In this document: piece after piece, positions 5,273-37,993 of the stretch | Layout: each line of letters starts with the position of its first letter | Numbering within the stretch: position 1 is the first letter of the stretch | NCBI GenBank assembly: GCA_947625165.1 | Contig: CANQNH010000001.1 | Location: 1 to 60,922 of the forward strand | Origin: an uncultured Clostridia bacterium | Lineage (GTDB): Bacteria > Bacillota > Clostridia > Christensenellales > UBA1242 | Direction: 5' to 3' | DNA: 60,922 nt | The notes under the pieces: generated by a model | What the model was told of the DNA's origin: nothing | Databases searched by the model: none | Seen by the model: the letters and a program-made list of their open reading frames with translations, nothing else | Made by a program: the position numbers and the translations under genes

Positions 5273-5689
5273 ATGGACGAATTTACTGAAATCAAAGATG
5301 AAAAACAATTGAATAATTTTTTAGATGAAATTTGGAATTTTCATGATGGGGTTATTTCAAAGATAGAATATGTTTCTGGCTCTTCTGGTTCAAAGGACGG
5401 AACTTATCCAATTGATAAAAATCCAAGAATTTTGCTGAGAATTGAAGGTTGTAATTATAACGAAACAACTATTGACGGAGTTGAACTTTTGTTTGAGGGC
5501 TTGATAAAGGCTTTTATTTCGCCGACAAGAGAAAATTACACTAGTAATATACTTGGTGCAAATATAGTATTAAAAAATAACAAATTTATATTTGTGAATG
5601 ATATTGACGATGATGTGGACAAAATTAACACTGACGAAAGATGTAATTATTATGTCATGGCAGAAAAATTAAGCTATAGATTGTCTTAG
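5273..5689 (+). CDS. hypothetical protein (small, beta-rich, immunity-protein-like pattern)
   Basis: Has a GGAGA RBS and codon usage like its neighbours, and is followed by a strong terminator. No recognisable motif. Confidence 0.55.
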   Translation: MDEFTEIKDEKQLNNFLDEIWNFHDGVISKIEYVSGSSGSKDGTYPIDKNPRILLRIEGCNYNETTIDGVELLFEGLIKAFISPTRENYTSNILGANIVLKNNKFIFVNDIDDDVDKINTDERCNYYVMAEKLSYRLS

Positions 5690-5778: not shown

Positions 5779-5870
5779 TTTGCCTATTGTGAACAACCGA
5801 AAAACAAAGGGGAACAGGTGGCAAGAGCAGTTGATTGCGGGCGGAGAGAACACTTCCTTCGTAATCAATA

Positions 5871-5902
5871 GGTCGTGGGTCCGATTCCCACCACCAGCTC
5901 CA
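5871..5902 (+). other. orphan tRNA/tmRNA 3'-end stub (T-arm plus acceptor 3' strand); putative att-site remnant
   Basis: GTGGG-TCCGATT-CCCAC is a T-arm, followed by CACCAGCTCCA. CAGCTCCA equals the E. coli ssrA / tRNA-Ala-type acceptor end. No complementary 5' acceptor strand or anticodon arm lies within 400 nt upstream, where a CDS and its terminator sit. Confidence 0.5.
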
Positions 5903-5950
5903 TATGATCTATGTGCAAGAAATGAACACTTTTTATTGGACTAGACATAC

Positions 5951-5977
5951 AAAAACTCCCTAAAATTGGGAGTTTTT
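5951..5977 (-). terminator. bidirectional hairpin downstream of the transposase
   Basis: AAAAACTCCC-TAAAATT-GGGAGTTTTT is flanked by A/T runs on both sides. Confidence 0.55.
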
Positions 5978-5982
5978 GTGTT

Positions 5983-7113
5983 TTAAGTGGGGAGATTTGC
6001 CCAATATTCATCTTCAAACTGGTTAGGGGTTTTATTATTTAGTGTCCCATGAGGGCGGTAATTGTTGTAAAATTCAATATACTTATCAACACATTCTTTC
6101 AATTCGTCATAGTATTCAAAGTCATGTGAATTTAATTCTTCCTTTTTCATGCAAGCAAAAAATGATTCTATAACTGCATTATCATAAGGGTTGCCTTTCT
6201 TTGAGAAAGATTGGTCAACTTTCAGCGAATGCAAAAACATGCGAAATTCCTGCGAAGTGTATATGTAGCCTCGGTCGCTATGGAATAGAAGATTTTTAGG
6301 ATTATTTCGGCTTTCAAAAGCATCTTTGAAAGTGTTAATTATGAGTTGAGTGTTTTCTTGACTTGATAATCTATATGCAATTACCTTTCTAGAAAACAGA
6401 TCTAAAATTACGCACAAAGTGAATAAAGCTTTGCCGACATACAACTTTGTTGTGTCGCTAACCCATGAAACATTTGGTGCGTGCGGATTGAATTCTCGAT
6501 TTAGTTTATTCTTTAAATATTTGAACTTTCCTTCCTGTTGTATGAAAGTCCGCTTTTTGCGAAGCTTTGGCTTTATGTTTAAAACTTTCATTAATTCATA
6601 GACTTTGAGTTCGGAAACTTTTATGCCTTCCGCCTTCAATTTTTTGCAAATTTTATTGCCGCTGAATCTTCCTTCGCTTTCATCGAAAACTCGCTTTATT
6701 TGTTCTTTGAGAAAATTGTCGCGTTTTTCATATTGAGTTTCGACCAATCTGCTTTTACGATAATTATAGAAAGTACCGGTTGGCAATGCTAAAACGCGAC
6801 ACATTTCTTTTGTTGGGTATTGACCAAATAGCGATTCAATAGCTTCAAGTTTTTGTTGCCTAGGGGAGTCTTTGAAACAATGTGCTTTTTCCATTATTTC
6901 AAATTCACGAAGTTTCTTGTCGTATTTGTTTTGAAGACGGATGTAATCACCAATGGTATATTGAGTTTTGTCCGTGAGCATTTTATATCTGCCAATCCAG
7001 TAAAACAAAGTGGACTTTGCAATGCCATACTTTGATATCACAAACTCGATATCCTTGCATTGATTGTATTCCGAAACAACTTGCATCCTAAATTCTTTAG
7101 TGTAATTTTCCAT
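5983..7113 (-). CDS. IS3-family transposase (HTH plus DDE rve domain in a single ORF)
   Basis: N-terminal HTH (GIAKSTLFYWIGRYK). The rve core reads WVSDTTKLYV...LDLFSRKVIAYRLS...FHSDRGYIYTS...GNPYDNAVIESFFACMKKE...YNNYRPHGTLNNKTP (D, D, E). There is no frameshift split. Confidence 0.85.
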   Translation of the reverse strand: MENYTKEFRMQVVSEYNQCKDIEFVISKYGIAKSTLFYWIGRYKMLTDKTQYTIGDYIRLQNKYDKKLREFEIMEKAHCFKDSPRQQKLEAIESLFGQYPTKEMCRVLALPTGTFYNYRKSRLVETQYEKRDNFLKEQIKRVFDESEGRFSGNKICKKLKAEGIKVSELKVYELMKVLNIKPKLRKKRTFIQQEGKFKYLKNKLNREFNPHAPNVSWVSDTTKLYVGKALFTLCVILDLFSRKVIAYRLSSQENTQLIINTFKDAFESRNNPKNLLFHSDRGYIYTSQEFRMFLHSLKVDQSFSKKGNPYDNAVIESFFACMKKEELNSHDFEYYDELKECVDKYIEFYNNYRPHGTLNNKTPNQFEDEYWANLPT

Positions 7114-7178
7114 TTTTTATTCCCTTTTTGTTGATAAATATGTTATTATATAATCATAAAACAATGGAGAAACGCAAT

Positions 7179-8159
7179 ATGGATAAAAAATTTCAAGTTT
7201 TTATAAGTTCGACTTATAGCGACCTTATTGAAGAACGTAAAAGTGTGCAACAAATTCTGCTTTCACAAAATTGCATACCAGCTGGGATGGAAAATTTCGT
7301 GGCCGAAGACAGAAAACAACTAGAAGCAATAAAACGAATAATAGATTTATGTGATTATTATATTTTAATTATAGGGGGTCGCTATGGGACAATAGATCCT
7401 GAAACGGGCAAAAGCTATACTGAATTGGAGTTTGAATATGCTGAATCAATTAATATTCCAATTTTAGTGTTTGCAGTCCAAGAAGATAAAAAATTTAAAA
7501 AAGGTAGATCTGAAGACTCAGAGGACAATAGGGCAAAGTTAAAAGCTTTTAGAGAAAAAGCTTTATATCAAAGATTAGGAGGGATTTGGAGCAACAAAAG
7601 TAAACTTGTGCAATTGGTATCCTCATCTATTGCAAAAGCAATAGAAACGGTAAAACGGCCAGGCTGGATTAGGGGGAGCGAATTAAAGATAGAAAATTCA
7701 GATGAGACACAGGACTACATTACTCAGATTGAAAACTTAAAGAAAGAAAACGAAGATTTAAAAAAGCGTATTAAAGAAATTACGACTTCAAATAAAAATT
7801 TAGCTTTTGAAAACTGTAAATACAATATAAGGTATAGAAAATTTTATAGAGATAAGTATGGAGTTGAAAAATCTAAAAAAAGAACAAAGAGAACAACACT
7901 AAGCGAAATATTTAAATACATATCATTAGAAATGAGCGGATATATGCTTCCGAAGTTGAATTTAGAAAAGATTTTAAAAGACTTTATAGATTCAAAATCA
8001 AAGATAGAGTTTGTTGATAATCAGGTGTTAGATACTTTGATTAACCAATACAAAGGTTTAGGCTTAATACAGCAAATAGTAGACAGTGGGGTTTATAAAT
8101 ATAAACTTACTGATAAAGGTGAAAAAGAAAAGAACAAGTTAAATTTATTAAAAAAATAA
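7179..8159 (+). CDS. DUF4062 (TIR/NDT-like fold) - coiled coil - winged-helix-like protein
   Basis: FQVFISSTYSDLIEERKSVQQILLSQNCIPAGMENFVAEDRKQLEAIKRIIDLCDYYILIIGGRYGT...SYTELEFEYAESINIPILVF matches the DUF4062 signature (vFiSST..DL..ER ... cD.yi.i.g.rYG ... tE.Ey). A coiled coil (IENLKKENEDLKKRIKEI) follows. The C-terminus ends GLIQQIV..GVYKYKLTDKGEKE, which looks like a winged helix. ATG 7179 has a GGAGA RBS 8 nt upstream. Confidence 0.65.
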   Translation: MDKKFQVFISSTYSDLIEERKSVQQILLSQNCIPAGMENFVAEDRKQLEAIKRIIDLCDYYILIIGGRYGTIDPETGKSYTELEFEYAESINIPILVFAVQEDKKFKKGRSEDSEDNRAKLKAFREKALYQRLGGIWSNKSKLVQLVSSSIAKAIETVKRPGWIRGSELKIENSDETQDYITQIENLKKENEDLKKRIKEITTSNKNLAFENCKYNIRYRKFYRDKYGVEKSKKRTKRTTLSEIFKYISLEMSGYMLPKLNLEKILKDFIDSKSKIEFVDNQVLDTLINQYKGLGLIQQIVDSGVYKYKLTDKGEKEKNKLNLLKK

Positions 8160-8165
8160 AAATAT

Positions 8166-8184
8166 TTGATTTTCGCAAAATCAA
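8166..8184. repeat. cassette-boundary hairpin, copy 1 (TTGATTTT-CGC-AAAATCAA)
   Basis: Perfect 8-bp AT-rich inverted repeat 6 nt after the stop at 8157-8159. The same element recurs at 10552, 11121 and 13961. Right-arm-only copies (AAAATCAAA) lie at 8196-8204, 8753-8761 and 9212-9220. Confidence 0.8.
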
Positions 8185-8193
8185 ACGGCTGTC

Positions 8194-8258
8194 GCAAAAT
8201 CAAAATTTGATTATTTTTGATTTATTTTGATTTTTAATCAAAATATGTTATAATCGCA
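8194..8258 (+). promoter_or_regulatory. duplicated promoter-like block with iterated TTTGATT motifs (copy 1)
   Basis: GCAAAATCAAAATTTGATTATTTTTGATTTATTTTGATTTTTAATCAAAATATGTTATAATCGC contains TTGATT (8227-8232), a 16-nt spacer and TGtTATAAT (8246-8254). It is near-identical to 9210-9275. Confidence 0.55.
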
Positions 8259-8280
8259 ATATCAAAACGAAAAATCAAAA

Positions 8281-8342
8281 GTCGACTTTTTGGGGCATAC
8301 AGCCATATAAAACGAGTAAGTTGTCTTAAATGAGAGGGGGAA
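8281..8342 (+). repeat. shared promoter/5'UTR module, copy 1
   Basis: GTCGACTTTTTGG-(variable GC-rich)-CCATATAAAACGAGTAAGTTGTCTTAAATGAGAGGGGGAAATG. The conserved blocks fit TCGACT-18-TATAAA plus a ~30-nt UTR and a GAGGGGG RBS. It recurs at 8763, 9326 and 10635. Confidence 0.75.
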
Positions 8343-8747
8343 ATGAAGATATTACTAATTTGCAGCAAGGCTTTTTATGATAAATTAACTGATTATAAAG
8401 AAAGACTTGAAAAATTGGGGCATGAGATTTTTATGCCGAATTGCTGGAATTGTCCAGAAACTGAAGCAAAATATAGGGGAACGAAATGGCATGCTTCTTG
8501 GAAAGCCAGCATGATCAGACATAGTGAAGAAGTTATAAGTGAAATGGATGCAGTTTTGGTTTTAAATTTTGATAAAGGCTCTCAAAAAAATTATATTGGT
8601 GGAGCAACTTTCTTGGAAATTTATGATGCATTTAGGTTGGGCAAGAAAATATTTTTTATAAACGACATTCCGCAAAATATGCTGCAAGATGAACTGATAG
8701 GCTTTTCTCCAAAAGTCATACATGATGATTTGACAAAAATAGTTTAA
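8343..8747 (+). CDS. nucleoside 2-deoxyribosyltransferase-like (NDT-fold) protein
   Basis: MKILLICSKAFYDKL...LEKLGHEIFMP...EVISEMDAVLVLNFDKGSQKNYIGGATFLEIYDAFRLGKKIFFIND follows the NDT-like layout: N-terminal strand, G..v..P, then the D.vv.l...yiG.gt..E...A...gK.i tail. Confidence 0.5.
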   Translation: MKILLICSKAFYDKLTDYKERLEKLGHEIFMPNCWNCPETEAKYRGTKWHASWKASMIRHSEEVISEMDAVLVLNFDKGSQKNYIGGATFLEIYDAFRLGKKIFFINDIPQNMLQDELIGFSPKVIHDDLTKIV

Positions 8748-8762
8748 TTGTTAAAATCAAAG

Positions 8763-8824
8763 GTCGACTTTTTGGCGGTAACTCCCATATAAAGTAAGTA
8801 AAAAGTCTAATTTGAGGAAAAAAT
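8763..8824 (+). repeat. shared promoter/5'UTR module, copy 2
   Basis: GTCGACTTTTTGGCGGTAACTCCCATATAAAGTAAGTAAAAAGTCTAATTTGAGGAAAAAATATG aligns block-for-block with copy 1. Confidence 0.7.
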
Positions 8825-9205
8825 ATGAGAGAAGAAAATTTGATTGAAATTTTTATGTCAAATGCTATTGAATCAGCTGTCGATGTTGATTATGGAAATA
8901 AAGCGGAAATAAAAAAACACAATAAGGCAATTGAAAACTATCGTAAAATTGCAGAAAAAATAAAGAAGAAAGGTGATTCTTCAGAAATAGACAATTTTGT
9001 TGAATTGTTAAATAATGATAATTGGGACATTAAAATAGCAAGTTCTGTATGTATTATTGAGATTTTAGATTTAGAAGAATATAAAGAAAAGGCTTTATTG
9101 ACAATTAAAGAATATTTGGAATATTTAAAATCGCACGCAACTACGCAACATGAAAAAATAAACAAAATAGGGTTTGAATTATACTTAAAAAAATACAGTA
9201 AGTAA
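8825..9205 (+). CDS. DUF2019-like HEAT/helical protein (immunity-protein-like)
   Basis: LIEIFMSNAIESAVDVDYGNKAEIKKHNKAIENYRKIAEKIKKKGD...FVELLNNDNWDIKIASSVCIIEIL resembles the DUF2019 pattern. The call is from memory only. Confidence 0.4.
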   Translation: MREENLIEIFMSNAIESAVDVDYGNKAEIKKHNKAIENYRKIAEKIKKKGDSSEIDNFVELLNNDNWDIKIASSVCIIEILDLEEYKEKALLTIKEYLEYLKSHATTQHEKINKIGFELYLKKYSK

Positions 9206-9209
9206 TTCT

Positions 9210-9275
9210 GCAAAATCAAAATTTGATTATTTTTGATTTATTTTGAATTTTTAATCAAAAAATGAGTTATCGCAA
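9210..9275 (+). promoter_or_regulatory. duplicated promoter-like block with iterated TTTGATT motifs (copy 2, degenerate -10)
   Basis: GCAAAATCAAAATTTGATTATTTTTGATTTATTTTGAATTTTTAATCAAAAAATGAGTTATCGC has only a few substitutions relative to 8194-8258. Confidence 0.5.
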
Positions 9276-9325
9276 AATAATTTCGCGAAAAACTTCGTGG
9301 CGTTCGCTGGCGCTCGGCAACAAAA

Positions 9326-9387
9326 GTCGACTTTTTGGCGGGGATGGCCATATAAAGTAAGTAAATTGTCTTAATTGAGAGGGGGAA
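9326..9387 (+). repeat. shared promoter/5'UTR module, copy 3
   Basis: GTCGACTTTTTGGCGGGGATGGCCATATAAAGTAAGTAAATTGTCTTAATTGAGAGGGGGAAATG. Confidence 0.75.
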
Positions 9388-9720
9388 ATGGACACATCTT
9401 TTTATTGGGAGAACAGGTTGCATGATGCGGACATTATTGATTGCAAAGAAATTACATTTGACTATAATGTAAAAGACAAAAATCCCATACGGAATTGTCT
9501 TGAACTTATTATAAATAGCAGTCATGCTTTATATGATACAAGCATTAAGGGAATAAAACTATATAATTATAAAATCTTGTCTGATTTAAAAAATCCAAAA
9601 AATCTCTGGTGGAAAGAAGATAAGCTTGAAACAAAAGAAAACAAACTTATCTTAACAATTTATGGACACAATAATGAAGTCTTTGTTGTTAGATTTGACA
9701 AAGGAGAAACTATCAAATAA
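9388..9720 (+). CDS. hypothetical small protein
   Basis: Preceded by the shared RBS module. 110 aa with no motif recognised. Confidence 0.55.
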   Translation: MDTSFYWENRLHDADIIDCKEITFDYNVKDKNPIRNCLELIINSSHALYDTSIKGIKLYNYKILSDLKNPKNLWWKEDKLETKENKLILTIYGHNNEVFVVRFDKGETIK

Positions 9721-9764
9721 TAAGTGTTTCTCTTAAAAAATATAAGTAAAAAAAGGAAAACAAA

Positions 9765-10211
9765 ATGTTTCAATATAGAGTATCAAAATATAATCCTAAA
9801 CTTAGAGATGAAAATCAAGCCTATGCAAAGGAAGAATGGACATCATATAGCGATATTGGCAAAAAATTCTCTGATGGGACACTTTCCGAAAAAGAGTACT
9901 TAAAAGTTGAGAAAGAGTATATTGATTTTATTTATGGTCTTTTTAATGAATTTAAAATTGAAAAAATAAAGATATTAAAACAAGAGCCTAAAAATATTTT
10001 TAAAAAGACGTCTTTTGATGTAGATGATAAATGGTTATATACTCTCATTCAGAAAAATATTAGAGAAGAATTTTGGTGCAAGTTTAAAACAAAGCAATTT
10101 GAAATTTATATGGGATATGATTTTTATTTACACATTGATTTTACAAATGATACTGAAAAACTCTTGGAACAATTAGCCAAGAAACACAATCTATTTTTAG
10201 AAAAAGATTGA
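9765..10211 (+). CDS. hypothetical small protein
   Basis: AAGGAAAA RBS region; 148 aa; no motif recognised. Confidence 0.5.
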   Translation: MFQYRVSKYNPKLRDENQAYAKEEWTSYSDIGKKFSDGTLSEKEYLKVEKEYIDFIYGLFNEFKIEKIKILKQEPKNIFKKTSFDVDDKWLYTLIQKNIREEFWCKFKTKQFEIYMGYDFYLHIDFTNDTEKLLEQLAKKHNLFLEKD

Positions 10212-10237
10212 ATTTTTTATTTTTTAACGGAGTGTAT

Positions 10238-10555
10238 ATGAAAAGAGTTAATATTGCCTATGATTATGACTATGACGAAGAAACAGAGAAAACTATTGTC
10301 AATGGAAAAGTTGATATAATTGAATTGCCTGATGAAATAATTAAAAATATCGATTATTATGTGCAAAAGTTTTTTGACTGGGCGGCTAACAAATCGAATG
10401 GTTGTTTCCATTATGATATCACTCTAAAAAAAGATGTTTGTCAGATTGTAAGCGAAGATTTTGTCAGGTATATAAACAACGAACTTAAAATGCAAGCAAA
10501 TGTAATTGAAGTAAATGTGGACATTAATCCCAATTTACCCATTGTTGAATTTTGA
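10238..10555 (+). CDS. hypothetical small protein
   Basis: ATG 10238 has GGAG 6 nt upstream. The track ORF starts at TTG 10208, in frame. The stop codon lies inside boundary hairpin copy 2. Confidence 0.5.
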   Translation: MKRVNIAYDYDYDEETEKTIVNGKVDIIELPDEIIKNIDYYVQKFFDWAANKSNGCFHYDITLKKDVCQIVSEDFVRYINNELKMQANVIEVNVDINPNLPIVEF

Positions 10556-10570
10556 TTTTCGCAAAATTAA
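10552..10570. repeat. cassette-boundary hairpin, copy 2 (imperfect)
   Basis: TTGATTTTCGCAAAATTAA overlaps the TGA stop at 10553-10555. Confidence 0.7.
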
Positions 10571-10634
10571 ACTGTTCTCGCAAAATATAGCTGAAGTCTT
10601 GGTGACGCTGCGCGGTTGTTATAAACGAAAAAAC

Positions 10635-10708
10635 AAAAGTTAATTTTCTGCCGGTTGCAGCCATATAAAACGAGTCGTTTATCTTAATTGGGGGGGGGAG
10701 AAAAATAT
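10635..10708 (+). repeat. shared promoter/5'UTR module, copy 4 (diverged -35 block)
   Basis: ...GTTAATTTTCTGCCGGTTGCAGCCATATAAAACGAGTCGTTTATCTTAATTGGGGGGGGGAGAAAAATATATG. The -10 and UTR blocks are conserved, and the RBS is a G9 tract. Confidence 0.6.
10690..10698 (+). repeat. G9 homopolymer in the RBS of the 10709 gene
   Basis: Nine consecutive G, counted directly in the sequence. Confidence 0.9.
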
Positions 10709-11119
10709 ATGCAGATTGAAGAATTTTGTGGTTGTCTTGAAGGCTCGGATCAAGATTGGTTTACTGGTGATGCGGAGACTGGCGGCATTGAATATTGGAA
10801 ATCTTTGAAAGAGAATGAAAAATCAAAGGTTAGGCACTTTATTTTTGAAAAGTATGGAGATATGCAATCGCCAACAGAAACTTGTGTTTTTGAACCATTT
10901 GGAAAATTTATAGAAATTCTTTCACTTTGTGGTGACAAAAATGATATTCTTTTCGTGAAAAAACTTTTTATGGAAACACAATCAAAAAATATGGCATTTT
11001 ATATTGCCAATGTGTGTGAGTTTCCAAAAGATTTTCTTTTAAGTAAACTCGAGAAATTTGACAGTTTGGATGAATACGAACAAAGAATTATTGAGCAGAT
11101 AAAAAACAGACCTAATTGA
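10709..11119 (+). CDS. hypothetical small protein
   Basis: ATG 10709 follows the G-rich RBS. The track start at 10688 is an in-frame TTG inside that RBS. 136 aa with no motif. Confidence 0.5.
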   Translation: MQIEEFCGCLEGSDQDWFTGDAETGGIEYWKSLKENEKSKVRHFIFEKYGDMQSPTETCVFEPFGKFIEILSLCGDKNDILFVKKLFMETQSKNMAFYIANVCEFPKDFLLSKLEKFDSLDEYEQRIIEQIKNRPN

Positions 11120-11120
11120 T

Positions 11121-11139
11121 TTGATTTTCACAAAATCAA
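11121..11139. repeat. cassette-boundary hairpin, copy 3
   Basis: TTGATTTT-CAC-AAAATCAA has perfect arms and starts 2 nt after the TGA at 11117-11119. Confidence 0.8.
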
Positions 11140-11239
11140 AGTGCGGTTGAGAAGTGTTTGTGATGGTGTTTGCTAAGAGTGAAAAAATCTGTTTTTTATC
11201 GCAAAGAAACATAGAAAAAGAATTTTTGAAGGAGTGGTG

Positions 11240-11761
11240 ATGAGTAAATTTTATTGTGAAATATACCAATTGAAAAACATTTTAAGAAAAGGTTGGCTTA
11301 TAAGTAACGCTGGCAATGTCAATACTGGTCGTGTTGAAAGTGATGCAGAGCATACCTTTTCTATGTGTATGTTGGCAATGGAGACTATGACGAAATCCGA
11401 CAAATATAAAAATCTTGACCAACTTAAAGTTTACAAAATGATTCTTGTTCACGAACTATGTGAAATAGATGCAGGGGATCACACGCCTTATGATGAGATT
11501 TCACAACAAGAAAAATACAATATGGAACTTGCTTGCGTAAAAAGAATCGCCAAAGATTGTGAAATGCCGGAATTGTTGGTTTTGTGGAAAGAATTTGAAG
11601 AAAATGAAACTGCTGAAGCACAATTTGTGAAAAAGATGGACAGACTTGATGCAATAATGCAAGCAAAAATCTATTCAGATGAAAGAAAAAATAATGAATT
11701 GTTCAATGAATTTAAAAATAATTATAAAAAAATTGCAGATGAATTTGAGCTTTATCTTTAA
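11240..11761 (+). CDS. HD-domain phosphohydrolase (YfbR-like 5'-deoxynucleotidase family)
   Basis: ESDAEHTFSMCMLAM and LVHELCEIDAGDHTPYD supply the H...HD...D metal ligands in YfbR-like spacing. The RBS is AAGGAG. Confidence 0.65.
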   Translation: MSKFYCEIYQLKNILRKGWLISNAGNVNTGRVESDAEHTFSMCMLAMETMTKSDKYKNLDQLKVYKMILVHELCEIDAGDHTPYDEISQQEKYNMELACVKRIAKDCEMPELLVLWKEFEENETAEAQFVKKMDRLDAIMQAKIYSDERKNNELFNEFKNNYKKIADEFELYL

Positions 11762-11836
11762 CAGTTGTTGTATTTAGTGCACAAAAATTATGGAAAAATG
11801 TTGAAAAATGCGAAATTTTTTGAGGAGAGAAAATTT

Positions 11837-12514
11837 ATGAAAAGAGTAATCTTAACGGGTGCAAGTGATGGTTTGGGAAAAGAAGTTGGAAAACTGTTTT
11901 TGTCGGGGGGGGGAGAAGTTGTTGCTCTTTGCCGAACAAAGCCAGAATATGATTGCAAATTCATCAAGTGCGATTTGTCCGATGAAAAATCAATGACTAA
12001 GGCGTGCGAAATCATCAAAGAAAAATATCCTGAATTTGATGCGCTGATAAATTGTGCGGGAACTCAATGTATTGAGCCGACAAACAACACTCCTTATGCA
12101 AAATTGGACTATGTGATGAAAGTCAACACGATTGCGCCAATGTTTTTGATTTGTCAGTTGTTTGACCTGATAAAGCAAAACGAGGCAGACATCGTGAATG
12201 TTGGCTCAACTGTGGGTTTGAAATCTGGCCCAATCAATCAGGTTGGATACACAACTTCAAAATGGGCCATTCGTGGAACAAGTGCAAATATTGAGGCGGA
12301 ACTCAAAAACACCGCTTGCAGAGTTATCCAATTCAATGCTGGTGGGATGAACACAAGGTTTGTTGAGAAATATAACGGGCAGAAAATTTCCGATGTAGAT
12401 GCAAAAGAGTGGATTGACCCAAAGGATATGGCAAAAGTTTTGTTGATGACTTTGCAAGTTCCAAAAAACATTGAGATAAGTGACATTTGCGTGAACAGAA
12501 AAAGAAAGAAATAA
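11837..12514 (+). CDS. short-chain dehydrogenase/reductase (SDR)
   Basis: MKRVILTGASDGLGKEVG is the TGxxxGxG Rossmann motif. NCAG and YTTSKWAIRG (YxxxK) are also present. The CDS contains a G9 tract at 11905-11913 encoding GGG. Confidence 0.75.
   Translation: MKRVILTGASDGLGKEVGKLFLSGGGEVVALCRTKPEYDCKFIKCDLSDEKSMTKACEIIKEKYPEFDALINCAGTQCIEPTNNTPYAKLDYVMKVNTIAPMFLICQLFDLIKQNEADIVNVGSTVGLKSGPINQVGYTTSKWAIRGTSANIEAELKNTACRVIQFNAGGMNTRFVEKYNGQKISDVDAKEWIDPKDMAKVLLMTLQVPKNIEISDICVNRKRKK
11905..11913 (+). repeat. G9 homopolymer inside the SDR CDS
   Basis: Nine consecutive G encoding Gly-Gly-Gly. A +/-1 slip would frameshift the gene. Confidence 0.9.
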
Positions 12515-12556
12515 AGCGGTGTTGAGAGGTTTCAATTCGTGTGAACAGGAGAGGAT

Positions 12557-13348
12557 GTGGAAAAGTTTTATTCAAAGGAAAATTTGTTTTTGGCACCTGA
12601 TGTGAAAATACGCTTTGGTCAGGAGAGCGAAATTTCAAACTTGTGGAAAAACATAATCAGTGTTCAGGAGCAGGAAAAAAGAGAAAAACTTGTTGACAAT
12701 TTGCTGGAAATTATGGGAATGGACACCGAGAAAAACGGTTTTTTTGGCAAAGAGGACAGGGTTGATTGCGGCAATTTCCGGGCTTTTGTGCTTGATGACA
12801 AAAGTTTGTATTATATGTTTTTTGAAAATTTGAGAAACCTTAGCAATCAAAATGTGGGTGGAAAAATTTCGGATGGCTCAATCATAAATCAGGCAATCAG
12901 GGCGACAATCCGAGACTATGCCGGTGGCGATGGGGTTGACAGAGATGAGAGACTTAAATTGACCACTTTGACGGACGAGGGGCTTGCTCCGTCAATTTCA
13001 AGGCAGAAAGGGAAAAATTGTTTCTATTGCACCGAACGGGCGGCAATTTCGCACAATCTATGGCTGCTGACAGGCGCAAAGTCCTATTTTTGTTGGACAA
13101 ACAGCGACAGTTTTGGTGCAGAAAATCCAGAATATAAAAACGACACACACAACTTCACCATTGTTGAATATGATGACAAATTCAGATTGTATGATTTGGC
13201 TATGGACAATTTTTGCTTTTTGGAAAACGACTGCATTGACAAATTGTTGTCAGGAAAAGGCTTGAAAGTGGAGCAGAGCAAGACAGTTGCAAATCCTGGA
13301 GTTTATGCACAAAATTTGAGTGAAAAGGCAAAATCAAAGCAAGATTAA
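12557..13348 (+). CDS. hypothetical protein; possible transglutaminase/papain-like Cys-His-Asp fold
   Basis: GTG start. GKNCFYCTERAAISHNLW, then KNDTHNFTIVEY, then RLYDLA give a C...H...D order compatible with a transglutaminase-like core. This is weak. Confidence 0.35.
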   Translation: MEKFYSKENLFLAPDVKIRFGQESEISNLWKNIISVQEQEKREKLVDNLLEIMGMDTEKNGFFGKEDRVDCGNFRAFVLDDKSLYYMFFENLRNLSNQNVGGKISDGSIINQAIRATIRDYAGGDGVDRDERLKLTTLTDEGLAPSISRQKGKNCFYCTERAAISHNLWLLTGAKSYFCWTNSDSFGAENPEYKNDTHNFTIVEYDDKFRLYDLAMDNFCFLENDCIDKLLSGKGLKVEQSKTVANPGVYAQNLSEKAKSKQD

Positions 13349-13407
13349 AAAGAGACAACTGCTTGCTTGTTGCGACAAATTTGAAAGTCTTATCGAAAGG
13401 AGATTAT

Positions 13408-13956
13408 ATGAAGATAATTTATCAAACAGAAAGATTGATTGTTCGGCGATGGCAGATGAAGGATTATCGCGATTATTTTGAGTTTGTAAGCATTCCAGAT
13501 GTTTCAAAATATCTCAATTTCCAGCCTTACAAAACACTCAATCAGGCAAAAGAAAGAATTGCGAATATGATTGCTGCGTATGAAACAGAGCCTGTTAAAG
13601 CGGATTTTGCAATTGTGCTTAAAGCAGAAAACAAAGTTATTGGAAGTGTTGCGATAAACAGTTTTAAACCAAGTGCGGACGGTGTGGTTGGAATTGGCTA
13701 TATGTTGAACCCTAAATATCAAGGGAAAGGCTATGTGACAGAGGCTGTTGTTGGGCTTTTTAAGTATATCAAGCAGAACAATATTGCAAAACGGATTGAA
13801 GCAACTTATGATGTCGAAAATGTCAAGAGCGGAAATGTGATGAAACGAGCAGGTATGACCTTTGAGGGAATAAAACGAAAGGCTGGACAAAACAATTTAC
13901 ATTCAAGATACGATGTTGCTTTATATTCAATTCTTTTTGAGGAAATAAAAGACTGA
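13408..13956 (+). CDS. GNAT N-acetyltransferase (RimJ/RimL-like)
   Basis: MKIIYQTERLIVRRWQMKDYRDYFEFVS is the typical RimJ-like N-terminus. YQGKGYVTEAV is the acetyl-CoA loop. The RBS is AAAGGAG. Confidence 0.75.
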   Translation: MKIIYQTERLIVRRWQMKDYRDYFEFVSIPDVSKYLNFQPYKTLNQAKERIANMIAAYETEPVKADFAIVLKAENKVIGSVAINSFKPSADGVVGIGYMLNPKYQGKGYVTEAVVGLFKYIKQNNIAKRIEATYDVENVKSGNVMKRAGMTFEGIKRKAGQNNLHSRYDVALYSILFEEIKD

Positions 13957-13960
13957 CAAT

Positions 13961-13979
13961 TTGATTTTCGCAAAAACAA
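13961..13979. repeat. cassette-boundary hairpin, copy 4 (imperfect right arm)
   Basis: TTGATTTTCGCAAAAACAA lies 4 nt after the TGA at 13954-13956. Confidence 0.6.
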
Positions 13980-14061
13980 CGAAAAGAAAGATTGAATATT
14001 TTTTGCTGATTGCGACAATTTTGACACATTTTCAAAAAGTGAAAATTTTAAGGAGAAAGGG

Positions 14062-14571
14062 GTGAAGAAAGAAAAATTTTTGACCGTTTTTGCAGTTTTT
14101 GATGAAAAAACGCAAGAAATTTTGAGGGGTATTCAAAGTCAAGTTTTGGCGCTGGGGCATTCGTGGACGCAAACAATGGACATCCCGTTTCACATCTCTC
14201 TTGGAAGTTTTCCTGTTGAGGACAAAGAAAAATTAAAGTTGAAAATCGCCCAAGTATGCAAGGAAAACACTTTGTTTGATGTTGAATTGAAGCGCATCAA
14301 CCATTTTGGTGACAAGGTCTTGTTTGTTGAGCCAACTGTCAACAAAAACTTGTTTGATTTGCACAAAATGTTTGACAACAACTATGCCGATGGTTTTGAT
14401 TGGCACGCACACGCAACCATTGTCTCTGGGGAGCAGGAAGATGTTGTCAAAGCAAAGACTTTGTTGAACAAAATTTTCAAGCCTATGAAGGCACAAATCA
14501 CAGGCATTCAAATGGGTGAATTTTTTCCGACAAAAATGATTGTTGCGAAAGAACTTTGCAAACAGATGTGA
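14062..14571 (+). CDS. 2H phosphoesterase superfamily protein (LigT / 2'-5' RNA ligase-like)
   Basis: Two H-x-(T/S) motifs in the expected spacing: PFHISLGSF and WHAHATIVSG. GTG start after AAGGAGAAAGG. Confidence 0.65.
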   Translation: MKKEKFLTVFAVFDEKTQEILRGIQSQVLALGHSWTQTMDIPFHISLGSFPVEDKEKLKLKIAQVCKENTLFDVELKRINHFGDKVLFVEPTVNKNLFDLHKMFDNNYADGFDWHAHATIVSGEQEDVVKAKTLLNKIFKPMKAQITGIQMGEFFPTKMIVAKELCKQM

Positions 14572-30318: not shown

Positions 30319-30365
30319 AACAAAAAACTGATAAGGTGTTCTTATCAGTTTCACTTGGCGGAGAG
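30319..30365. repeat. direct repeat R4 (authentic tRNA-Ser 3' end plus terminator)
   Basis: AACAAAAAACTGATAAGGTGTTCTTATCAGTTTCACTTGGCGGAGAG overlaps the tRNA 3' end at 30356-30365. Confidence 0.85.
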
Positions 30366-30446
30366 TGAGAGATTCGAACTCTCGCGGCCTGTTACAACCC
30401 TACTCCCTTAGCAGGGGAGCCTCTTCGACCTCTTGAGTAACTCTCC
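30356..30446 (-). tRNA. tRNA-Ser (anticodon GCU)
   Basis: Minus-strand read GGAGAGT..CTCCC-CTGCTAA-GGGAG..long variable arm..GAGAG-TTCGAAT-CTCTC-ACTCTCC-G-CCA. The acceptor and T-arm pair perfectly and CCA is encoded. Confidence 0.9.
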
Positions 30447-37903: not shown

Positions 37904-37993
37904 TGGCGCAGAGGAAGAGATTCGAACTCTTGGTGTGATTTCTCACACACAGCCTTTCCAGGGCTGCACCTTAAACCTCTCGGACACCTCTGC
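37904..37993 (-). tRNA. tRNA-Ser (anticodon GGA)
   Basis: Minus-strand read GCAGAGG..CAGCC-CTGGAAA-GGCTG..long variable arm..AAGAG-TTCGAAT-CTCTT-CCTCTGC-G-CCA. Confidence 0.9.

Follow-up and report, generated by a model that had tools for sequence, protein, structure and literature searches.

Each cassette of an integron array ends in an attC site, an imperfect palindrome of 57–141 bp laid out as R''(RYYYAAC)-L''...L'-R'(GTTRRRY), and clusters of attC sites lacking integron-integrases (CALIN) do not require IntI. To our knowledge, integron-style modular gene capture is essentially absent from Firmicutes. A minimal mobile element of Neisseria is a slot between conserved sequences that holds different genes in different strains, is exchanged homologously and has no mobility gene of its own. 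The concept is cited in PMC1538595. Promoter-early stem-loops (PeSLs) of T4-like phages are made up of a stop codon, an AT-rich stretch, a sigma-70-type promoter, a stem-loop, and the Shine–Dalgarno sequence and start of the next gene (PMC2839356). The genes that they flank, in hyperplastic regions, are small, variable and for the most part unknown (Arbiol et al. 2010, PMC2839356; Comeau et al. 2014, PMC4122927), and recombination between PeSL copies leads to insertions and deletions, replacements and minicircles (PMC2839356, PMC4122927). The subject of the present work is element E, a composite intergenic element of ~170 nt with a hairpin as its first 20 bases, which punctuates an array of small genes at 8.1–14.0 kb of a 60,922-nt stretch from an uncultured Clostridia bacterium (contig CANQNH010000001.1; the whole stretch is called the window), and which recurs behind tRNA genes in related gut bacteria, where the genes between tRNA and element vary.

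Anatomy, placement and distribution of element E

An earlier note on this DNA had drawn attention to a 19-nt AT-rich inverted repeat close to four stop codons, and the four copies hold up against shuffled sequence. The pattern TTGATTTTNNNAAAATCAA occurs exactly at 8166 and 11121, while 0.00 copies are expected from 100 dinucleotide-preserving shuffles; one mismatch adds 10552 and 13961, with all four copies on the + strand, and up to two mismatches give four observed against 0.77 expected. The gap that separates the stop codon (its last base) and the first T of TTTGATTTT is +5 (8165), −5 (10551), 0 (11120) and +3 (13960), the stop TGA at 10551 lying inside the left hairpin arm. Read directly, the hairpin is TTTGATTTT-CGC-AAAATCAAA, with 9-bp A/T arms and without R or L boxes. 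Profile searches (nhmmer) of the 60.9-kb window confine modules A and C, described below, to 8.1–14.0 kb, and find no match to the hairpin motif or its companion modules in the remaining ~50 kb; given the shuffle expectation and this confinement, the pattern is real and not a by-product of AT-richness.

The repeated unit is far larger than the 19 nt first described and amounts to the whole intergenic region. An 88-nt module that ends at ATG is present four times in the window (8265, 8747, 9310 and 10623), a 69-nt module twice (8194 and 9210), and module A, which is the hairpin with a downstream CGCAAAAT box, four times. The right-arm-only copies reported at 8745 and 9203 do exist, but they are additional copies of the 12-mer CGCAAAATCAAA ("box1"), which also makes up the right arm of the hairpin. 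Element E spans the entire gap from the stop codon of one gene to the ribosome-binding site of the next and contains three modules, namely the hairpin (A), phased TTTGATT repeats ending in a sigma-A-like promoter (B), and a leader with a ribosome-binding site (C). From the 5' side the order is the hairpin, n4–7 GTCGCAAAATCAAAG, and (TTTGATT N3–4) x4–5 with the repeats one helical turn apart; there follow TTTTAATCAAAAA hairpin or TGnTAAAAT, then GTCGCAAAATCAAAAC and then GAAAAATCAAAAAAAAGACTTTGTTGTYAGTTGACACA. The hairpin palindrome consists of two inverted box1 copies, and two more copies lie in E in direct orientation. The alignment of 18 elements from different species displays long invariant blocks and a sharp right end, where conservation halts at ...GTTGACACA and the conserved leader X (AATATATTGTATAAAAAGTCTTTTTT) comes next. 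The window and three metagenome-assembled genomes (MAGs) from rabbit (L025, L052 and L094; loci in other genomes are given L numbers) share a variant of E in which module C forms the last third.

The 18-element alignment contains no compensatory changes, and the RNA fold of the whole element (z = −0.97) is not better than that of shuffled sequence, so the constraint seems to act on sequence and not on structure. A reading of E as a structured RNA was rejected on the same grounds, namely the lack of covariation and the non-significant fold. Rfam at gathering thresholds, applied to the window and 15 loci, returned only tRNAs and RNase P RNA; at a permissive E-value, one element gave only a spurious miRNA-like match. 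Since the primary sequence is conserved without covariation, the common protein-binding site considered in the earlier note is plausible, and box1 would be the site bound. The conserved sequence comprises box1 in one inverted pair and two direct copies, helically phased T-tracts and −35/−10 hexamers. From this layout we infer a curved upstream region and a promoter flanked by operator-like box1 sites; E would thus be a portable, probably regulated expression signal for the gene that follows.

Other genomes were covered by a scan of GTDB, one genome per species, with the pattern TTTGATTTTCRCAAAAWYAA, which returned at least 119 loci; loci were ascertained by the exact hairpin pattern in 8-kb blocks, and all counts for other loci refer to the matches listed. 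The majority are lone matches by chance that fall within genes of unrelated phyla. About 30 belong to MAGs from the gut of mouse, rabbit, goat and human, labelled Christensenella, Christensenellaceae, Eubacteriales or Clostridia, and all of them carry the same ~170-nt extension; in several genomes, copies of E sit on different contigs. A BLAST search of 8100–11300 against phage and plasmid collections gave no match, and four element-derived patterns run against IMG/VR gave either nothing or chance matches in contigs that are unrelated and for the most part G+C-rich. The JGI metagenomes searched do not contain E: one scan gave 0 matches, and the bare 21-mer yielded 10 chance matches, unrelated and without the element.

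E is placed with great regularity with respect to the upstream gene. Of 30 copies that have an upstream open reading frame (ORF) of at least 50 codons, 28 start between −5 and +6 nt from its stop, and nine ORFs use a TGA inside the hairpin arm as their stop. A hairpin-free relative shows where the joint lies: L148 carries a homologue, 78% identical, of the window operon for 148 and 105 aa, its ORF ends in GAATTTTAA with a TAA of its own, and the next gene begins 18 nt on. The same ORF in the window and in L059 ends in GAATTT followed directly by TGATTTTCGC; as the L148 homologue stops at a TAA of its own where no hairpin stands, ORF and hairpin in the window are joined exactly at the stop codon.

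The second usual neighbour is a tRNA gene. A co-oriented tRNA occurs within 2.5 kb upstream in 12 of the 13 E matches that have at least 2.5 kb of upstream sequence, as compared with 0 of ~87 chance matches. The tRNAs linked to E are Arg-tcg, Thr-cgt, Leu-cag/taa/tag, Gly-ccc and Lys-ttt; clade members that have only the hairpin (L050, L086, L118, L074 and L077) likewise follow Thr-ggt and Leu-cag. The distance from tRNA to E is often just 30–40 nt plus one ORF, and in L074 the hairpin stands 2 nt past tRNA-Leu(cag). The window array sits behind a fragment of tRNA-Thr(cgt). The leader X (A[AC]TATAYTGYAWAAAAAGTCTTTTTT) is found after the CCA end of tRNAs and also after the right end of E, and what comes downstream of X is GAGG-N5-8-ATG of a gene in some cases and the second half of a terminator hairpin in others.

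A short relative of E (hairpin plus ATCAAAAAATCAAAAAAGAGCC) is present in other Clostridia MAGs (L036 2208–2420, L037 and L040), where it is convergent with tRNA-Ser at ~100 nt from the tRNA 3' end; this tRNA-Ser matches the tRNA-Ser(gct) of the window at ~80%.

Variable loci, exchanged units and competing explanations

The earlier note had proposed looking in related genomes for gene content that varies between fixed boundaries, and such variation was found at several loci. In five species with tRNA-Arg(tcg), the genes upstream are common to all, while those between the tRNA and the first element differ (among them NUDIX, GNAT and a block with FMN reductase). Behind tRNA-Thr(cgt), the first cassette is a cupin gene in L016, an NT5C nucleotidase gene in L035 and a DUF4062 gene in the window. 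L015 and L021 have flanks of ~95% identity and differ by 2.36 kb, with three genes and a full element, in place of 282 bp, and homology returns directly after the CGCAAAAT box in both; in L074 and L077, an ORF unit between tRNA-Leu and the hairpin is present in one and absent in the other. The same gene families recur in different arrays in differing order.

Near-identical tracts in otherwise different surroundings define the boundaries of the units. L063 (tRNA-Arg) and L110 (tRNA-Leu) have in common 1.1 kb with a peptidase S51 gene, with identity of 98–100% from just past X to the hairpin and 60–80% beyond, and the L063 element is nearer to the elements of other loci than to that of L110. Since this tract leaves out both X and the rest of E, it agrees with a double crossover at two different conserved anchors. 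In L053 and L118 (96%), identity similarly ends at the hairpin or up to 16 nt past it. The window segment 9349–10574 is 86–88% identical to L059/L149, a MAG from rabbit gut in which it follows a tRNA and has unrelated sequence on its flanks, and the homology between the window and L059 again ends at the hairpin end or no more than 16 nt past it. For L015 and L124 (95%), identity begins exactly past the CCA of two different tRNAs. Replacements and deletions are thus bounded by conserved motifs, with exchanged tracts ending at the hairpin on the right and at X, a different motif, on the left, and without co-transfer of the rest of E (L063/L110); the earlier suggestion that the marks are cassette boundaries is supported. 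The alternative of scars left by serial duplication fails, since the genes bear no relation to one another and many species have the same element.

A Pfam census of 145 neighbouring ORFs at 31 loci found no recurring recombinase family and no recombinase near any locus. Its most frequent families were NUDIX (8), GNAT (6) and methyltransferases (4), and the cargo consists of varied small stand-alone enzymes (NUDIX, GNAT, HD, TIR and others).

The explanation to which we give an even chance is that E is the bacterial counterpart of the phage PeSL cassettes and that recombination at conserved boundaries shuffles the genes. The hairpin is the upstream edge of a clade-specific composite element, and arrays of genes punctuated by E stand immediately downstream of tRNA genes. 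The left anchor (tRNA end and X) and the right anchor (hairpin and box1) would then serve as portable homology, through which whole units of leader, ORF(s) and hairpin could be replaced, deleted or moved between arrays and species, presumably by homologous or short-homology double crossover, and E would supply each incoming gene with expression signals. Several observations weigh against this explanation. The promoter scan found 31 sites overall against 29.8 in shuffled sequence, and the extended −10 form is seen in only ~7 of the 18 aligned elements. RecA-type recombination would have very short anchors to work with (X ~26–40 nt; hairpin plus box1 ~45 nt); the breakpoints recur at one nucleotide, after CGCAAAAT, which could mean site-specific cleavage; and homologous recombination does not explain how unrelated ORFs were first joined to the hairpin at their stops. 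Sampling by exact hairpin match biases both the apparent invariance of the hairpin and the copy numbers. In addition, four short metagenome contigs, 99–100% identical to the window and located through exact-protein look-ups, keep the gene order of the window, so no shuffling within the population is seen.

Anchors of 26–45 nt, breakpoints at CGCAAAAT^ and the exact, unexplained joints between ORF and hairpin keep a dedicated site-specific mechanism alive. It would be an integron-like system in which box1 sites are cut by a recombinase encoded elsewhere and capture takes place at tRNA trailers, and we regard it as rather unlikely; its fuller version, an undescribed integron-like capture in Christensenella-like gut Clostridia, in which cassettes of leader, ORF and hairpin are cut by a recombinase or nuclease at CGCAAAAT^CAAA and E is a regulated promoter, is unlikely. 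In its favour, the hairpin has the same place at or in the stop codon that attC takes in integron cassettes, units pass from one tRNA to another although the sequence in common is only short, the cargo is mixed and made up of small stand-alone enzymes, and changes fall exactly after CGCAAAAT in an insert of ~70 nt found in at least six elements, in the L015/L021 deletion between two box1 copies, and in the element at 9203 that starts with box1. The blank recombinase census at ~31 loci tells against such a system, as does the window integrase, which belongs to another island (see below), and one-site-type excision and integration would not give the L063/L110 tract, from which both X, at its left, and the remainder of E, at its right, are missing; integron-type recombination at a single site is not the pattern of this exchange, the best resolved. 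Recombinase cores are spaced by 6–8 bp for tyrosine and 2 bp for serine enzymes, unlike the hairpin arms, which are 3 bp apart, and the window hairpins at 10551 and 13960 have right arms mutated without compensation, so that two of the four copies no longer fold as hairpins. E could also be regulatory only, as an operator array with a strong promoter or as a signal for RNA 3' ends or stability, the variability being that of a tRNA-flank hot spot. Primary sequence conserved without covariation, phased T-tracts with promoter-like hexamers and palindromic box1 sites on both sides of the promoter all agree with this, and tRNA genes of the clade are also hit by classical integrase islands (window, L053); it is nevertheless a distinctly unlikely explanation, given that the boundaries of exchanged tracts coincide with the hairpin in three independent pairs, that deletions and insertions occur at box1, and that a regulatory signal has no need to start within 6 nt of the stop.

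Insertion of E after genes as a selfish, non-autonomous mobile element of the MITE (miniature inverted-repeat transposable element), REP/BIME or IS200/IS605-derived type is very improbable. E is indeed a multicopy, mosaic and modular intergenic repeat with a terminal hairpin, the nested ~70-nt insert shows that small elements target box1, and E-like motifs are inverted in some leaders. E nevertheless showed no terminal inverted repeats, target-site duplications or conserved target motif on its left; its orientation is in every case that of the upstream gene and the tRNA; no two loci differ solely by its presence or absence; the near-identical tracts are genes and not E; and it is missing from the viral, phage and plasmid collections searched. 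That the hairpins are ordinary intrinsic terminators or an AT-rich coincidence is scarcely credible. Their position after stop codons and the AT-rich region (27–33% G+C) would suit such an origin, but the window holds two exact copies where none is expected, and four copies in all with the related ones, and the 21-mer comes with the ~170-nt extension in ~30 of the listed loci, all in one clade, against the 10 chance matches in JGI. The stem has at most one G–C pair, AAA or ACG follows it with no T-run, the best fold is −5.9 kcal/mol (A1, as DNA), and the terminator scan called none of the four copies, which agrees with the earlier judgement that the hairpin is a poor terminator; real terminators close by (e.g., 5951–5982) are G+C-rich.

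The insert of ~70 nt lies exactly after CGCAAAAT of a box1 copy at L015 7270–7345, L046 ~5400–5475 and L052 2268–2345 and in L053, L078 and L124 (two copies), and short relatives of it are found in the window at 10587–10622 and 9279–9309. Its outer stem covaries between copies (ATAATGC/GCATTAT, ATAAAC/GTTTAT), the copies being too few for statistics; the inner hairpin is variable in sequence with a CAAG loop that is kept, stretches of CTCGCTCAC and GTTCGnCTCG are conserved and unpaired, and there is no Rfam match. It may represent a miniature element in nested position, or a structured-RNA or single-stranded-DNA site. A second conserved module, of ~270 nt and also without an Rfam match, separates X from the start codon in several cassettes (L110, − strand, 6900–7165; L063 4913–5180 and 5992–6260; L026, L112, L118, L023 and L017), and it contains a long hairpin (CATACTGCATGCAGTGG...CACTGGATACAG), an inverted repeat AGAAAAGA...TCTTTTCT and box1/TTTGATT motifs in inverse orientation. 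At L015 5830–6010, a cassette gene begins twice: a duplicate of its first ~25 codons (MTKEKLFEF...) precedes box1/AATCAAAA repeats, behind which the full gene stands. This looks like a recombination scar inside the array. Distant homologues (~33% identity) of the 148-aa orphan of the window occur without a hairpin in the Logan contigs L150/L151 (7425–7940), within an island that bears an integrase and Rep and beside a LysM protein and two DNA methylases, one cluster being named Enterococcus faecium; the family is thus mobile by other means in other Firmicutes.

The window array and its chromosomal setting

The features of the array are collected in Table 1. Over 83 nt, the trailer behind the tRNA fragment has 95% identity with L025, in which it stands 3' of element module C and not of a tRNA. 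The IS3-family transposase gene on the − strand is a single ORF of 376 aa with no obvious frameshift, and a simple terminal-repeat search around 5905–7130 found no terminal inverted repeats, the ends of the insertion sequence not being defined by that search. Module C1 is a member of the four-copy repeat family D1 (nhmmer E = 2e-22), and the right end at 14003–14061 was likened by eye to the consensus right end GTTGACACA. The GNAT gene of the four-gene block has a homologue that is the first cassette behind tRNA-Arg in L046.

Table 1. Features of the gene array in the window, with coordinates, strand and basis of assignment.
Feature	Position	Strand	Basis
tRNA-Thr(cgt) 3' fragment, anticodon loop to CCA; right attachment scar of the integrase island (144 to ~5904) and tRNA anchor of the array	5846–5904	+	Aligned to positions 20–76 of L016 tRNA-Thr(cgt)
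tRNA trailer with terminator hairpin, 78 nt; "empty" junction module of the window-type element	5905–5982	+	Inverted repeat 5940–5988
IS3-family transposase gene, between tRNA trailer and first cassette	5983–7113	−	Pfam rve, rve_3, HTH_21, HTH_Tnp_1
Cassette gene 1, DUF4062 protein	7176–8159	+	PF13271, E = 2e-29
Hairpin A1, TTTGATTTT-CGC-AAAATCAA, 5 nt past stop	8165–8184	+	Pattern match; DNA fold
Module B1, box1 copy and TTTGATT repeats with 10–11 bp phasing	8186–8262	+	Repeat analysis, alignment
Promoter-like site TTGATT-16-TGTTATAAT in B1	8227–8254	+	Promoter scan 10/12, upstream TG
Module C1, leader: palindrome AAAAGTCGACTTTT, then CCATATAAA, ribosome-binding site GAGAGGGGG ending at ATG	8265–8342	+	
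Cassette gene, 134 aa, without family assignment	8343–8747	+	Pfam scan, PADLOC, PDB sequence search
Module C2, without A or B	8747–8824	+	Repeat analysis, nhmmer
Promoter-like site TTGACA-16-TAAAAT	8730–8757	+	Promoter scan
Cassette gene, 126 aa, without family assignment	8825–9205	+	Pfam scan
Hairpin-less element: box1 directly past stop, B2 9210–9278, 31-nt insert after CGCAAAAT, C3 9310–9387	9205–9387	+	
Exchangeable unit: three ORFs (110, 148 and 105 aa) between a leader of ~35 nt and hairpin A2	9349–10574	+	
Hairpin A2, left arm giving TGA stop of the 105-aa ORF, right arm mutated (AAAATTAA)	10551–10570	+	
Module C4	10623–10708	+	Repeat analysis, nhmmer
Cassette gene, 136 aa, without family assignment	10709–11119	+	Pfam scan
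Hairpin A3 (CAC loop), directly past stop; degenerate element remnant behind	11120–11139	+	
Four-gene block: HD_3, SDR, 263-aa protein without family, GNAT	11240–13956	+	Pfam; G+C equal to host genome
Hairpin A4, right arm mutated (AAAAACAA)	13960–13979	+	
Degenerate element right end (TTGCGACAATTTTGACACA ... AAAAAGTG ... AAGGAG)	14003–14061	+	Repeat family D7, common with 13363–13384
Last cassette gene, 2H phosphoesterase (2'-5' RNA ligase superfamily)	14062–14571	+	PF13563

The gene labels of the earlier note survive in part: HD, SDR and GNAT are confirmed by Pfam, as is DUF4062, while the NDT-like (134 aa) and DUF2019-like (126 aa) labels find no support in the Pfam scan, and a PDB sequence search with the 134-aa protein was also without a meaningful match. 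PADLOC returned nothing for the nine cassette proteins of the window, and a defence-island reading was rejected on this blank and on the finding of a single TIR cassette, in L025. The first cassettes (7–11 kb) have a G+C content of 27–31%, against ~40% for the chromosome; the distal cassettes have the chromosomal value, and the copies of the element between them are degenerate.

The window is bacterial chromosome, with RNase P RNA and two tRNA-Ser genes (Rfam, ARAGORN), and smc, ftsY, ackA and pta were read by eye among its ORFs. The two tRNA-Ser genes (30356–30446 and 37904–37993) have ordinary G+C-rich terminators and no element. From 144 to ~5904 the window contains a classical integrase island, with a tyrosine integrase at one end (144–1514; Phage_integrase and an N-terminal SAM-like domain) and a partial copy of a tRNA 3' end at the other. 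Its cargo comprises a TerS-like small terminase (Terminase_4), a ParB_N protein beside a 182-aa ORF, a radical SAM protein and DUF1848; it looks like a satellite or an element resembling a phage-inducible chromosomal island (PICI), or a prophage remnant, with genes for DNA modification or repair. ARAGORN finds no complete tRNA at 5846–5904, and a complete tRNA-Thr copy would be expected to the left of the window. The integrase had been put forward in the earlier note as a possible partner of the array. As the tRNA-Thr(cgt) fragment ends the island, the integrase represents a separate insertion into the tRNA, and the array is the DNA downstream of that tRNA; with this separate scar and no box1 or TTTGATT motifs at the island end, the integrase was rejected as recombinase of the array. 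In front of the L053 array there is only the 3' half of tRNA-Thr(ggt), which suggests a similar island there.

Significance and comparison with known systems

An element of ~170 nt organises arrays of interchangeable small genes behind tRNA genes across many species of abundant, poorly studied gut anaerobes. If the proposed exchange through portable boundaries is true, it shows where these genomes keep and trade accessory genes (NUDIX, GNAT, HD, TIR and many orphans), and the hairpin, box1 and X would offer a sequence handle for recovery of this gene pool from metagenomes by PCR, as for integron cassettes. The elements would also be natural "plug-in" expression sites for the engineering of such organisms, and the mechanistic question would be posed of how unrelated ORFs join the hairpin exactly at their stop codons. 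Full-text searches of the literature for the motif or for tRNA-linked cassette arrays in Clostridia found no description.

Among repeat families, REP/BIME and BOX-type elements resemble E in being modular mosaics of short motifs and palindromes, intergenic, near gene ends and in many copies. REP hairpins, however, are G+C-rich and genome-wide, whereas E is A/T-rich, strictly oriented and tied to variable genes close to tRNAs, and the Pfam census of neighbouring ORFs revealed no RAYT transposase in the loci examined. E shows none of the hallmarks of a MITE, for its ends (TTTGATTTTCGC... / ...GTTGACACA) are not inverted copies, no duplication was seen, and no locus pair differs by E only; nor is it a canonical intrinsic terminator, having neither a G+C-rich stem nor a T-run. 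Any likeness between the hairpin and CodY, cre, Hin/hix or dif/Xer sites would seem unconvincing.

The minimal mobile elements of Neisseria share with the E loci a slot between two conserved sequences and differing genes within it, and also, if the explanation by homologous exchange is right, the way in which these genes move. The anchors there are flanking genes of hundreds of bases, while E has a tRNA end plus 26-nt leader on one side and 20–45 nt of hairpin/box1 on the other, and the E slots are reiterated in tandem. The arrays resemble integrons and CALIN in their co-oriented, compact and unrelated genes, each with an imperfect palindrome at or in its stop codon, in the variation between orthologous arrays, and in a mixed cargo of small stand-alone genes, e.g., acetyltransferases. 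They differ from them in having no IntI and no attC layout of R and L boxes at the array, as the earlier note had already stated, in carrying promoter-like signals in each element rather than one Pc for the whole array, in starting at tRNA genes and not at attI, and in that the best-resolved transfer leaves out the element beyond the hairpin; on the missing attC boxes, the missing IntI and the promoter-like signals of each element, membership of the integron/CALIN class was rejected.

With PeSLs, E shares the composite layout of promoter and stem-loop, a match in architecture only, any promoter or terminator activity of E being putative, and it too adjoins small variable genes. The replacements and deletions bounded by its motifs resemble, for their part, what recombination between PeSLs brings about. 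E is found in bacterial chromosomes and is anchored to tRNAs, whereas PeSLs belong to the hyperplastic regions of T4-like phages; it is longer (~170 nt), contains box1 and helically phased TTTGATT repeats, has no sequence relationship to PeSLs, and its hairpin is of A/T and not a G/C-rich terminator. The E array is therefore PeSL-like in its working and integron-array-like in its genome organisation, but it resides in a bacterial chromosome, is anchored at tRNA genes and is built on a new repeat family.

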